A program made the position numbers and the translations under genes. A DNA stretch of 61,842 nt, filler included, from Hausera hauseri (Eukaryota), in the NCBI GenBank assembly GCA_046269625.1. It is 10 parts of 10 records of this genome, joined end to end, with 100 filler letters (N's around TTAATTAATTAA, not from the genome) between each part and the next. Parts side by side here need not be neighbours in the genome. Positions count along the whole stretch, not along the records: positions 12,294 to 20,628 come from JBJURY010684327.1; 9 more parts are not named here. The stretch is one strand, 5' to 3'. A model generated the notes under the pieces. That model made no database searches and was not told the origin of the DNA. It saw only the letters and a list, made by a program, of their open reading frames with translations. Positions 12,294 to 20,628 of the stretch are shown here, one piece after another. Numbering within the stretch: the first letter of the stretch is position 1; each line of letters begins with the position of its first letter.

Positions 12294-12760
12294 ATCTGTT
12301 CTGGTGGTCCATATCTGCAGATGATTTTTCTTACTACTGCGTCGGCTAAAGTTTCTGCCTTTTGATCTAACAGTGCCACCAATTCAGCAAAGTGTGTTAG
12401 CCGATCTACGCATGTTAGGATGTATCTGTTATTCTTGTGAGTTTTCGGCAACGGTCCTACTATATCCATAGACATGGCTTGCATGGGCCTATCTAATACG
12501 TTTATGGGTTTTAATTCTGCTTCGTAGCCTTTCGTTTTCTTCTGTTTTGTCGCACAAACTTCGCATGCTCCTACCCAATTTTTACATCAATGTAGATGCT
12601 TGGCCACTAATATTTATTTAATATCCTTTCCAAAGTCTTTTTCCAAGACATATATCCGGCTAAATATGAATCGTGCTCGGCCATAAGTACTTCTATGCGC
12701 AATCCTTTTGAAATAACTATTAGTCTTCTCCCTTTTCGCTTGTAATATAGGATATTATCT
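12294..12760 (-). pseudogene. Gypsy integrase (zinc-binding domain and start of the catalytic core)
   Basis: EHDSYLAG...WPSIYIDVK...CEVC, then MDIVGPLPKTHKNNRYILTCVDRLTHF...IICRYGPPEQ. Confidence 0.9.
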
Positions 12761-12969
12761 TGTTTCCATGCATGATATTTATGTCCGTGTTTCTGTAGAT
12801 GCTTTTTCAGTTGTAGTCCTTTTGGTATCTGGTCGTTTTGTACGAACTCGATAATTTGCTAAATAACCGTATCTTTAGCTTGCTCAGTTGTAATTCTAAT
12901 CGTTTTATTTGATATTAGAGTTCTTTGTTGTTTGATCAACTGTTCGAATTGTGGTTTCTTTAGTGTGGT

Positions 12970-13440
12970 GATTGCACTCGTTTTTGTTTTTAATCTTGAC
13001 AGTGCGTCAGCGTCGACGTGTTTGTTACCCAGTTTGTATTGAAATTCAATGTTATATCGCGAAATTTCCTCGATCAAACGATTTAATCTACCTGTCGGAT
13101 TATTAACTCGTCCTTTTAATGTTGTAACTGCCTAGTGATCCGTTACTATTATAATCTTCTGTCCGTATACATATACATTAAAGTGCCGTAATTCTTCCTT
13201 AACGGCTAACGTTTCTAATGCGGCAACTGAGTAATTTTTTTCTGCTTTCTTTAGTGAACGTCCGCCATAGGCTATCGGGTGTTCTAATTCTTCGCCTTCT
13301 CGTTTCTGAGCTAATTCGTATCCTATGCCTTCTTTACTTGCATCTGTTTTAATGATGAATGGTAGGTTAAAATCCGTATATCTTAGGACTGGTTCACTTG
13401 TCAAAATTTTCTTAATTTCGTCGAACGCTCCTTGCTCCAC
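12970..13440 (-). pseudogene. Gypsy RNase H
   Basis: FIIKTDASKEGIGYELAQ...PIAYGGRSL..AEKNYS...LETLAV...IVTDH, HVDADALSR. Confidence 0.92.
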
Positions 13441-17600: not shown

Positions 17601-20600
17601 TCGTTCCCTCTACTTAAAGAGATGTTTCGTACTATGTCCTTTAAGTTATTGGTCCTTTTCGTATTGACCTCTTTTTCGAATAGTTTAGCCCATTTTATTT
17701 CTTTAGGTACCCTTCTCGCCGCTTTCCTAGCTAACCCGATAGTTTTGTCCAATTCAGTTTCTCGAAGAGGATTAGTTTTTGCAGCCAAGTATATCAAGAC
17801 TTTCCTTAATTTTTCCGTCGTATTGTCTATCATAATTCTGTCAATTACTGTTTCGTCAGGGAGGGTGATTTTAGGTAATTTAAATCGCGAAGTCTTTATT
17901 TTCTGAGCTGCATTACATATTAGTCTTTCCTTCTTGGATAATATGTCGCCTTGGAGTGCGGTATAATTGACTATCCTTATTAGATCTCTCATTAGCTCGA
18001 TTAGTTATTCGTTACCTGATCTCGGAGTGGGTATTAATAATTGTCTCAATTCCCTGATTAGATCTGCGTTATAGTCAATTTCCTTTATTTTTCTTAGTCT
18101 TCCGACCAGTCATTTCGGTTTCACCGGTAACGAAGTTTCTCTTAGGGGAACTAAGTTCCTATCGTATTGCAGTTGATCATCATCAGTCTATAAGTATTCG
18201 AAATACATTGCGGCATCTTGGATCCCCATGATTTTCCCAACGCAATGCTCTGTATGTGACTTTCTCATGGCTTCATCCTTGGTTTGCTCGCTGGCGACTA
18301 TGGCTATTATTCGATTCGCTTCGAGTGGTATAATCCCAACGTCTATTAAGAATTCTAGCTCATCTAATATCCTACCTCTGAAATAGAGTTGGTAGTTAAC
18401 TCCTTTCCTACCATCCTTATCCATTATCCTCTGTTTTATGTTCCCAACGGTGGGATAGGTAGTACACTAAAATTCCTTGTCATCCATTCCTTCGGATGAT
18501 ACTTTCACTTTAATTTCTGCTTCCGGTTTATTTTTCAATAGTTTCGCGTACTCTCTTATTAAGAGATTTAGTACGGTGCTGTATGCGGTATTTTCGCTAG
18601 ATAGTTTAGTCAAGGTTGGAATCAATTCCCTTAACTTCTCTTCGCTTATGTTTATTTTCAACATTCTGCTAGTTCCTTTAGCGAGCGTGAGATCAAGTAG
18701 CATTTGGACATCAAATTTCGTCTTCCATGCACCAGTAGGTGACTCATAAATTTGTATTGGAGTTCTTTTACTTTGCTCGGTTAGACCTTCGAGATATTTA
18801 TCCCATTTAGCTTTATTATCCGCGTCAGGTAACTCGTAGTTCGTTAGTGCCGCATGTCCGACCTGGACTCTTTTGCGTAATCCTCTTATTTGCGGCTGCA
18901 ATGTTTTCATTACGGATATTCTAAATCCGTCTCAATTTCCACACCCTTGATGTATCAATGTTATTAATCGGCACATTTTTTCTGGTTGTATCAAGTCTTT
19001 CCCCGATAACTAGTCATTTCCGCAAATCTGTCTCTTTGTCATCTCTGTATAAATTCCGTTTTGTCATTCATTTCAGATTCCGTAAGGAAATACTTGTTCT
19101 TGCAAACTTCTGTTTCTCTCAGTAATTCGTTTAGCTCGCGGTGCCTTTTTTCGGAGGGTAACCGGGTTTCTTTTAGCAGACGTATTTGATTTGATAGTCG
19201 TTTGGCTACTACTTCGTTAATTTCTGCCATTTCTGTTAATAATGAGATTAATTTGTGCATTTTATTCAATACTTCAGCATCCGGATCTATTGCATCCATT
19301 AGCCTGCCTATGAACTTGGCTTCATCCGCCGTTAACTGGAGATCTTTCCTTATTTCCGTTAGTTCGTTGTGGTAGAGTAGGTCGAACCCTGGTGTCCATT
19401 CTGGTGGATTTGTAAATACTTTAGTGTCTAATTCGAGAAGACAAGCACGCATTATTCTCCGTGCTTCTGCCTTTTCAGGGTAAACTATACCGATTCTTAA
19501 GTCGTTAATTTTAGCTCGTATCTTATTTTCTTTTTCAATACGTATTTTTAAATCTGCGTTTTTTCGAGTGCTATCCTTTATTAAGCTACACATATCTATT
19601 AGAAAGGAAATGTCGACTTGGTATATGCCCAATATCTCTAAGTCAGCATCAGTCAATTCATATACTGGCTTGTTATGCAGGTAAGAAATTATCGTTTCTT
19701 CGATTTCATATATCAATCCTTCTAGATTACGTCTTACGCGTTTTAGTTTTAGATTGTCCTTTAGTGCGTCTAATAGTCCTTGAGTTTGATTTATTTGTTC
19801 CAGAAATGGCTCATTTCTATTCCACCATATTTTCGGAAAATCAATCTCACTCTTTGTCCATAATTCTAATTTACTTTGCCAACTCTCTATTAAGTCTTTC
19901 GGCTTTTTCTGCAGTCTATAATGTATGTTTTTTTCCTTTTCTTGCGAACCGGTTTTAAGCTTTTTACATAGCTTTTTTATGAATGTTGTTCTTCTCCGGA
20001 AATATCCAACTGTTTGCTTTTCTCCTGGAGTTTTTGTAAGCTCTCCTGTAGCCTTTCCGGATCATTCAATGCGTCTCTTATTTTTGTTATTTCGCTACCA
20101 TTTTTCCCAGACTTTCTAATTTTTCCAAATTTTGTAAATTTTTCCTCTTTCGATTCCTCTTCACTAAGTGGTAACGGACAAACTTCATTAATTTCATCGA
20201 TATTCGAAATATCTGTTGTTTCCGGAACGTTTTGAGTTATAATAGGAGTATTTAACATCTCTTCATTTCTTAAAGTGATGATGAAATCTTCCTCCTTTCC
20301 TACATTCTTTTTAATAGGGGATCGTGAACGAGTTCCTGACCTTCTCCTAAGAGAAGGGATTCTACCTCTATTCTTGGTTATCTTAAGTATTAATGGTCCA
20401 ATAAATTCACTCTCAACTTCGTCAGTTGTTTTATCCTTAATTTGAGACAGTACTTCGGTATCTGCGTCCAAGTTTACACTTGAAAGCGTAGACAGTTTTT
20501 CTTCTTTCTCCTCTCTTACTGCTTAATTTAGATTTTTCTTCCTGGCCATAATAGTATTCTTAGGTGCTATAGCTTTTTCGTACTCTGTTTTTGGTTCTCT

Positions 20601-20628
20601 TAACCCATGATAAACTTCCATTTGCTTC
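17590..20628 (-). pseudogene. Large N-terminal polyprotein region (gag position), helical/coiled-coil, with an embedded ubiquitin-like domain at about 18290-18515
   Basis: ORF pieces 18467-18910, 18188-18424 and 17531-17992 share one frame that runs into the G signal peptide. RRRSGTRSRSP motif near 20330. No CCHC knuckle seen. Confidence 0.7.

Follow-up and report, generated by a model that had tools for sequence, protein, structure and literature searches.

The two retroelement copies B and C are very probably the dead remains of an abundant Ty3/gypsy family, likely of the Burro type, that carries a fusion gene (G) of chuvirus/gB type before its protease; the active form was likely one Gag-accessory-G-Pol polyprotein, which would thread the ER membrane and be cut. 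The window, the whole 61,842-nucleotide stretch of Hausera hauseri DNA that was analysed, consists of unlinked pieces joined with N spacers, so both elements are cut at segment ends. Neither LTRs nor a PBS, Gag or full-length integrase can be seen within the cut segments B and C, and the relatives L003 and L004 show no direct repeats of at least 40 nt either. Segment D, with ankyrin and RT, was considered as a further Burro piece and ruled out; its RT, at 32% identity, falls in with the outgroup. The features of B and C are as follows.

6995-12193 (element to 12100), plus strand: segment B, second and more decayed subfamily member with signal, G, TM, tail, PR, RT, RH and IN
12294-20628, minus strand: segment C, decayed Ty3/gypsy relic
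18960-20627, minus strand: upstream N-region of C in two decayed frames, the first acidic/low-complexity and the second helical; truncated where the segment ends
18270-18490, minus strand: ubiquitin-like (Ubl) domain sharing its frame with the signal; Pfam ubiquitin E 0.013, below cutoff
17690-17910, minus strand: helical stretch where relatives carry a Bcl-2-like domain; 1.6 bits
17540-17600 (about 17593-17540), minus strand: internal signal-like hydrophobic stretch; hydropathy peak 2.0, small-residue cleavage-type end
15947-17539, minus strand: ectodomain of a class III fusion glycoprotein of Monjiviricetes/chuvirus (gB) type; 3 frame changes and 5 stops interrupt it
15810-15946, minus strand: transmembrane helix and, behind it, a shorter hydrophobic stretch that bears a cysteine pair, by hydropathy
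15100-15809, minus strand: tail/linker between G and protease; third-position bias against B persists through it
14800-15100, minus strand: aspartic protease; DTG motif (DTGS) at 15047, RVP E 1e-4
14340-14760, minus strand: PR-RT spacer with homology to the one in relatives (blastp match with P0007 1121-1384, E 3e-20)
13050-14320, minus strand: reverse transcriptase and RNase H; RVT_1 (E 6e-33), RT_RNaseH_2, YLDD at 13791, TDAS at 13347 (DAS at 13344)
12294-12720, minus strand: integrase zinc-binding part and core start; Integrase_H2C2 E 9.7e-8, rve E 1.7e-6; truncated where the segment ends

The order in C is N-region (with the ubiquitin-like domain), internal signal, Monjiviricetes/gB-type G, TM, tail, PR, RT, RH and IN, and B repeats it starting just before the signal. 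Pfam matches on single-frame pieces and the B/C alignment bear out this order and its coordinates in two copies, as a preliminary description of this DNA had it. The Pol order PR-RT-RH-IN, with gypsy-type Pfam domains in order and catalytic motifs (DTGS, YLDD and TDAS in C, DTGS and YLDD in B), also confirms its assignment to the Ty3/gypsy type. RT of C is 40-45% identical to that of G-bearing gypsy-type relatives. The PR-RT spacer of C, which we take to resemble a degenerate dUTPase-like spacer, gives no Pfam match to dUTPase.

B and C share 66% nucleotide identity over 5030 columns. They had been described as two diverged copies, each repairing the other; diverged they are, but at this identity they are, judging from sequence, two subfamilies rather than near copies. 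Mismatches by codon position are 0.245/0.183/0.514 over 1513 aligned codons, and no stop among these codons (9 in C, 15 in B) is common to both. Because of this third-position excess and the absence of shared stops, the conservation pattern is not chance; the codon comparison points to a purifying pattern through signal, G, tail and Pol. The signal-bearing frame of C holds five stops, at 18469, 18190, 18112, 18007 and 17533. Three of the five are private to C among the positions listed, from which 18469 and 17533 are absent: at 18190, 18112 and 18007 contigs making up at least 96% of the family's summed depth differ from C. No length difference in 17480-18500 reaches a 90% share of contig depth, again among the positions listed. 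The stops are thus in keeping with one uninterrupted reading, as had been proposed.

Frame changes are found in both copies. In the tail, C changes frame at about 15300, and B keeps one frame on both sides of the tail-to-protease point and is stop-free over 9162-9506. The earlier statement that B reads through this frameshift holds for the frame of B itself, but the B/C alignment is gappy there. Ahead of RT (about 14325 in C and 10283 in B) both copies shift frame within about 20 nt. Further upstream, C changes frame at about 19990 and 19040-18930, where it is the sole copy. The peptide before the signal had been called conserved and in frame in both copies. In C the signal-like stretch does share its frame with the region upstream of it; in B only about 70 nt precede the hydrophobic core, and they contain a stop that C lacks, so B says little on the N-region. 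As described before, no Met lies immediately ahead of the core; in C the nearest is 80 codons off, another lies at 133 codons, and there is a stop at 138.

These two Mets and the stop behind them, the gappy alignment at the tail-PR frame change and the shift of both copies ahead of RT would all suit a G with its own ORF in the B/C family, which would start at a Met 133 or 80 codons before the signal core or would end in the tail, a programmed frameshift then giving access to Pol. We regard this as highly improbable, since C alone has the stop at 18007 and two more stops upstream of it, the frame of B is unbroken across the tail-PR point, and the shifts ahead of RT run in opposite senses at a junction that is continuous in relatives. 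Although no intact copy of the B/C family was seen, the stop and codon patterns together with the relatives make a single ORF the likely ancestral state of B and C.

The best matches of C's G are long ORFs, at an identity of only about 30%. Among 19 matches scanned, picked by rank and length, 10 have PR following G within a single ORF, which in 5 cases continues through RT and RH; P0155, L003 and L004 show this too. L004 can be read straight from DNA as 3703 stop-free codons, with Gag-CCHC-Ubl-G-PR-RT-RH-IN in one frame. P0155, a 4844-aa relative with ankyrin, forms one 90% cluster with P0008. In 12 of 12 relatives examined, 149-1365 residues precede the signal in frame. The single polyprotein that had been proposed for the active form therefore exists in natural relatives such as L004, and we infer it for the B/C family.

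The internal signal proposed earlier is supported by hydropathy in C and by the same arrangement in all 12 relatives examined, 10 of which pass a hydropathy threshold of >1.7. One contig skips 70 nt across this region (17527-17598), a run of unknown kind with non-splice ends. A continuous ORF could also coexist with a spliced or subgenomic message that supplies most of G, most Gag-Pol bypassing G as with retroviral env, so that the in-frame layout would be incidental. A single ORF forces about 1:1:1 Gag:G:Pol, a ratio that is to our knowledge unusual for retroelements, and the contig with the skip could be counted in favour of such a message, though its ends are not those of a splice. All intact relatives examined, however, hold the frame before and after G, and we consider a bypassing message unlikely.

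PF24664 (Monjiviricetes_fusion) matches C at 17064-17453 (E 1.8e-8), 16135-17025 (E 7.8e-19) and 15248-15991 (E 1.9e-9), and it matches B with E 6.4e-15. Against the PDB, 39 of 40 matches of the G profile are herpes gB. The predicted fold of the relative P0013 (pLDDT 84.6) matches both chuvirus G (E 6e-43) and herpes gB (E 2.6e-13). The class III, chuvirus/gB-type assignment made earlier is thus supported for C's G, with the fold predicted from P0013 and C itself placed by sequence. A single TM had been described after the ectodomain; two hydrophobic stretches are seen instead, at about 15943-15870 and 15844-15810, and this two-part pattern recurs in the 12 polyprotein relatives and the 3 stand-alone G proteins inspected.

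In the N-region of C, the frame read in each of two parts has 1 stop in 212 codons and 0 in 340, compared with 14-39 in the other frames. A Pfam search of this region gave no match, and neither Gag capsid nor zinc knuckle nor any match to the relatives' Gag was found in its 3 kb. Gag capsid and zinc knuckle are present in L004, P0015 and P0019; Gag and LTRs of C are outside the segment or lost. With 6 Ubl stretches of relatives combined in a profile, C reaches 9.5 bits at 18376-18287, against a maximum of 2.5 in 300 shuffles; by this profile, the Ubl domain is common to C and its relatives. At the Bcl-2 position, 11 of 300 shuffles score as high as C, and the relative P0013 has a weak Bcl-2 Pfam match (E 9.6e-4).

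The G tree was built from 15 rows of polyproteins together with 35 of the 60 stand-alone G's. All 15 polyprotein G's fall on one side of a branch with support 99, with C inside on a long branch (1.51). The branching order of the RT tree, which has only 3 outgroup rows and a root support of 34, matches that of the G tree. A word-index homologue search of longer proteins with the middle piece of G, limited to 2000 aa and weak as evidence, found none among 779 candidates, and the G piece found no relative among viral contigs. The RT alignment reached only 2 loci there, one of them L001, in which an F-type env follows IN. If a gypsy element without kinship to the Burro type had captured a chuvirus G independently and recently, that would explain the low identity of C's G to its best matches and its long branch, and published GAG-ENV-POL elements are themselves not monophyletic (PMC13524379). 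Yet C's G nests among the polyprotein G's, away from the 35 stand-alone ones, the RT order is congruent and the Ubl domain is shared with relatives, which makes such a capture very unlikely.

For the likely polyprotein, a route through the membrane can be proposed. Translation would begin from the one ORF, as it stands in the relatives. The N-region would stay in the cytosol, the internal hydrophobic stretch would act as a signal-anchor that puts G in the lumen, and signal peptidase would free the G N-terminus. The first C-terminal helix would stop transfer, with the second short stretch on the cytosolic face, and PR-RT-RH-IN would fold in the cytosol as the tail of G; Pol is placed there because Pol in the lumen could not work. 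G trimers may then bring Pol to the budding site, where the element's protease may release Gag, accessory domains and Pol enzymes, and particles would enter other cells by means of the class III fusogen. Signal peptidase and the protease of the element itself, suggested earlier as the processing enzymes, are plausible in that role. A search by title and abstract, with subscription journals mostly outside its coverage, found no papers on signal-peptidase processing of such polyproteins. The flavivirus C-prM, a capsid followed by a signal-anchor, would be a better analogy than the alphavirus structural polyprotein, which was set aside.

A broader reading is offered tentatively, as one that could well prove wrong. 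Burro may represent just the giant extreme of an old and broad clade of gypsy elements, compact as well as large, whose G and RT co-descended in one membrane-spanning polyprotein; Pol would be packaged as the cytoplasmic tail of the fusion trimer and the signal-anchor would keep Gag at the membrane, an assembly route that no studied retrovirus is known to use. No such route is discussed in the Burro section of PMC6431247 or the main text of PMC13524379. The anatomy added here comprises the conserved internal signal, the TM with its juxtamembrane segment, the shared Ubl cargo, and G and RT trees that match over about 15 relatives. It makes testable how particles assemble when Gag, fusogen and enzymes share one chain that crosses the ER membrane, and the intact natural relatives L003, L004 and P0009 are better suited to this question than B or C.

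Several known systems share parts of this layout. NERVs, described in J Gen Virol in 2022, reportedly have a continuous gag-env-pro-pol ORF with an RNA-virus-type glycoprotein and are said to be restricted to nematodes. Their env and pol are in flipped order (Sacco et al. 2022, as cited in PMC13524379). Anakin elements, Bel/Pao elements with chuvirus G in mosquitoes (Dezordi et al. 2020, PMC7642597), have the same glycoprotein family inside an LTR element, but Pol of C is of Ty3/gypsy type and only gypsy/retroviral-type Pfam families were matched. Capture of chuvirus G had been thought to lie mainly in Bel/Pao; 114 arthropod gypsy elements with chuvirus-like G speak against this (PMC13524379). 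Nor is gypsy env confined to a separate ORF after pol, as had been assumed: in Burro/GYPSM1, a planarian giant Ty3/gypsy element, env lies in frame between gag and pol in one ORF of 4,873-5,140 aa, in the order Gag, Ubl/SUMO-like, BCL2, env, PR, dUTPase-like, RT (PMC6431247, Arkhipova and Yushenova 2019). Burro env matches fusion glycoproteins of arthropod and fish mononegaviruses, and the section on Burro is without discussion of signal peptide, topology or processing (PMC6431247). Compared with this published description rather than with Burro sequences, C is alike in having Ubl upstream of env and, as its relatives have and C probably had, env ahead of PR in one frame. Where Burro has its BCL2-like domain C scores at the level of some shuffles, and at the position of the dUTPase-like part C has the spacer homologous to that of its relatives. 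MATH, BIR, Smc and ankyrin were not found by Pfam in the 8.3 kb of C, which is all that is visible of it, whereas Burro is a giant of 25-30 kb with further cargo.

GAG-ENV-POL errantiviruses with HSV/gB-type env are reported from Platyhelminthes, Bryozoa and Nematoda, with 9 flatworm and 10 bryozoan elements listed (PMC13524379, Chary and Hayashi, eLife 2026). The main text of that article treats the parts as ORFs, and the words "polyprotein" and "Burro" do not occur in it. The preliminary description had allowed that an earlier record of G before PR in the same RT clade would remove its novelty; for the layout this applies, since it is in print for Burro and for these three phyla (PMC6431247, PMC13524379), and the C/B locus therefore contributes no new kind but one more member, decayed, abundant and on a long branch. 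Compared with those clades by layout rather than by their sequences, C resembles the gB-type GAG-ENV-POL errantiviruses in its Ty3/gypsy Pol, its gB-type env before pol and its ectodomain held between a signal/TM and a TM (PMC13524379).

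Two decayed Ty3/gypsy relics in the window, C and B, are both cut at the ends of their pieces, so their LTRs and flanks are not visible. The pieces are unlinked, and each spacer between them is a 12-base linker flanked on either side by 44 N. The features are:

12294-20628, minus strand: relic C (JBJURY010684327.1)
6995-12193, plus strand: relic B (JBJURY010309720.1)
1-6894 and 49466-55211: two related decayed Polinton/adintovirus-like pieces, 71-86% alike in ungapped blocks, with weak matches to protein-primed DNA polymerase B and adenovirus-type protease
20729-26835, plus strand: a different gypsy element, its reverse transcriptase unrelated to that of C, with PHD-like and ankyrin-repeat host-like fragments ahead
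28600-30600, minus strand: decayed non-LTR retrotransposon reverse transcriptase, its C-terminal part RNase H-like
40100-43070, minus strand: broken ubiquitin-activating enzyme E1 gene (ThiF, E1_4HB and SCCH matches), introns not evident, adjoining a glycosyltransferase-4-like fragment
56712-60230, plus strand: intact, intron-free 1172-aa SNF2 ORF, nearest in the PDB to the ERCC6/Rad26 group; a degenerate half resembling helicase-C recurs, by eye, in its C-terminal part

In Pfam scans of single-frame pieces, C has three matches to the glycoprotein (G) profile PF24664 (Monjiviricetes_fusion), ordered as in the profile (55-164, 199-457 and 542-601 of 653), with RVP, RVT_1, RNase H, Integrase_H2C2 and rve downstream of them. 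The catalytic motifs DTGS, YLDD and TDAS are preserved. Domain order and motifs bear out the arrangement proposed in the preliminary description, N-region, signal, G, PR (protease), RT (reverse transcriptase), RH (RNase H) and IN (integrase). B has the same order, beginning just ahead of the signal, and is indeed a diverged second copy (66% nucleotide identity over 5030 columns). Mismatches between B and C at codon positions 1-3 are 0.245, 0.183 and 0.514 (1513 aligned codons), and this bias extends from the peptide before the signal across G, tail and the enzyme part (Pol). The alignment holds nine stops in C and 15 in B, none in common. Frame changes in C lie at about 17438, 17100, 15947, 15300 and 14325. 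The frame of B is unbroken at the first four; the tail-to-PR frameshift near 15300, said to be read through in B, is so, though the alignment is gappy there. At about 14325 both copies shift frame, at most about 20 nt apart and in opposite senses. Since frame changes in B are numerous, this single coincidence is unremarkable; the flanking pieces of C align to successive residues 2441 and 2442 of the relative P0155.

C belongs to a large, diverged family: 22,539 contigs of one public run lie on it with a likeness of at least 80%, mostly below 95%, and every one of the 30 bins is covered; summed contig depth gives no copy number. At the in-frame stops 18190, 18112 and 18007, another reading takes 96% or more of the summed depth (60, 14 and 22 contigs). 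Thus at least three of the five in-frame stops of C in 17480-18500, among the positions listed, are contradicted by the family, and the stops ahead of the signal mostly reflect decay of C alone. Among the length differences listed there, none reaches a 90% share. A separate G ORF in the B/C family is the least probable alternative and very improbable.

The middle piece of C's G finds 223 proteins at E ≤ 0.001 in a full HMMER scan (best 150 of 223 listed), the top matches being long proteins. Nineteen, picked by rank and length, were domain-scanned. Ten have G then protease within one ORF, which in five (P0007, P0009, P0012, P0018 and P0025) runs on through RT and RH; seven have G without Pol at the scan threshold. 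G lies after integrase in P0145, and a G piece after RNase H in P0035. P0155 (4844 aa) carries ankyrin and six protease-like stretches besides. At the DNA level, metagenome locus L003 has a 5'-open frame of 3426 codons. In L004, a frame of 3703 codons holds a pair of CCHC knuckles, a weak match to ubiquitin, G, PR, RT, RH and IN; the L004 N-terminus resembles those of P0011 and P0025, which are Gag-like. A single frame for G and Pol is proven in both loci. With the stops mostly private to C, the proposed N-region-G-Pol polyprotein is well supported. The nematode elements described by Sacco et al. in 2022 reportedly have a continuous ORF as well.

Protease-like stretches are repeated two to six times in some of L003, L004, P0007, P0009, P0018 and P0155. 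Past the integrase, hydropathy and sequences give signal-like and TM-like stretches in several of these six (frames 2-10282 in L003 and 97-11208 in L004), which suggests that the same ORF ends in a second membrane protein. A separate downstream ORF of L003 (10617-12107) matches an RNase T/DEDD-type exonuclease (E 1.4e-5), and L004 has a similar-looking one (12085-13473), possibly an accessory gene of this clade. The G-PR-RT-IN polyprotein P0009, deposited under a Flavobacteriaceae metagenome-assembled genome as a hypothetical protein, likely comes from an animal retroelement contig binned with the bacterium. In contig L001, whose ends are identical over 114 nt, a 2387-aa Gag-PR-RT-RH-IN ORF (948-8111) also encodes an F-type env, joined in frame behind the integrase.

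All 12 relatives examined have a signal-like stretch ahead of the conserved Asp-Cys at the G start, in agreement with the internal signal predicted for C; this stretch passes the hydropathy threshold of 1.7 in ten and has 149-1365 in-frame residues ahead. We consider a spliced env from an otherwise continuous ORF unlikely. After the ectodomain, relatives and stand-alone G's alike have a long hydrophobic helix and then a second stretch, a short one, in which a cysteine pair is frequent. Gag was not found in the visible 3 kb N-region of C. Near 18490-18270 there is a ubiquitin-like domain (Pfam ubiquitin, E 0.013); a profile built on six such stretches of relatives reaches 9.5 bits at this place, compared with 2.5 at most for 300 shuffles. 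A profile made from the Bcl-2-like regions of five relatives gives no more than a candidate, at the expected position just before the signal (11 of 300 shuffles score equally high).

In the PDB, a profile of 88 G sequences has 40 matches at E ≤ 1, of which 39 are to herpesvirus gB (best E 5e-5). The structural model is of the natural relative P0013 rather than C's own G (pLDDT 84.6, pTM 0.60). Its first matches are chuvirus glycoproteins (Tacheng tick virus 4, E 6e-43) and, in the PDB, herpes gB (E 2.6e-13, TM about 0.34-0.41), a resemblance that supports a class III G. In a FastTree tree of 15 polyprotein G's, three fragments, C and 35 of 60 stand-alone G's, the first three sets lie on one side of a branch with support 99 and the stand-alone G's apart. 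C forms a long branch within this group, and an independent recent capture of G is quite improbable. The RT tree (FastTree, 12 rows, three of them outgroup, root support 34) joins P0018 with P0025, then C, P0012, P0009, L003/L004 and P0007/P0155. This order matches the G tree and points to a shared descent of the two genes, with RT monophyly not proven by the RT tree.

The env-before-pol layout of C is already published. In Chary and Hayashi (PMC13524379), gB-type GAG-ENV-POL elements are placed in Nematoda, Bryozoa and Platyhelminthes as a non-monophyletic set, with Sacco et al. 2022 cited for the nematode elements; the paper's figures or external sequence files may already place the B/C family. 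The Bel/Pao case is treated by Dezordi 2020 (PMC7642597). The C/B family is probably related to Burro, the giant planarian elements with env in frame between gag and pol (PMC6431247). A literature search by title and abstract found no paper on how such Gag-G-Pol polyproteins are processed or what topology they have. Gene order, the class III G, the single ORF of relatives and the decay private to C are shown, and we propose a route by which the membrane-spanning chain would be assembled. A signal-anchor would keep the N-region in the cytosol and then be cut by signal peptidase, the first C-terminal helix would act as stop-transfer, and Pol would form the cytosolic tail of G. G trimers might deliver Pol to the bud, and maturation of the particle might fall to the protease of the element itself. 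The flavivirus capsid-anchor-glycoprotein chain is a closer analogy to the Gag-G-Pol chain than the alphavirus polyprotein.
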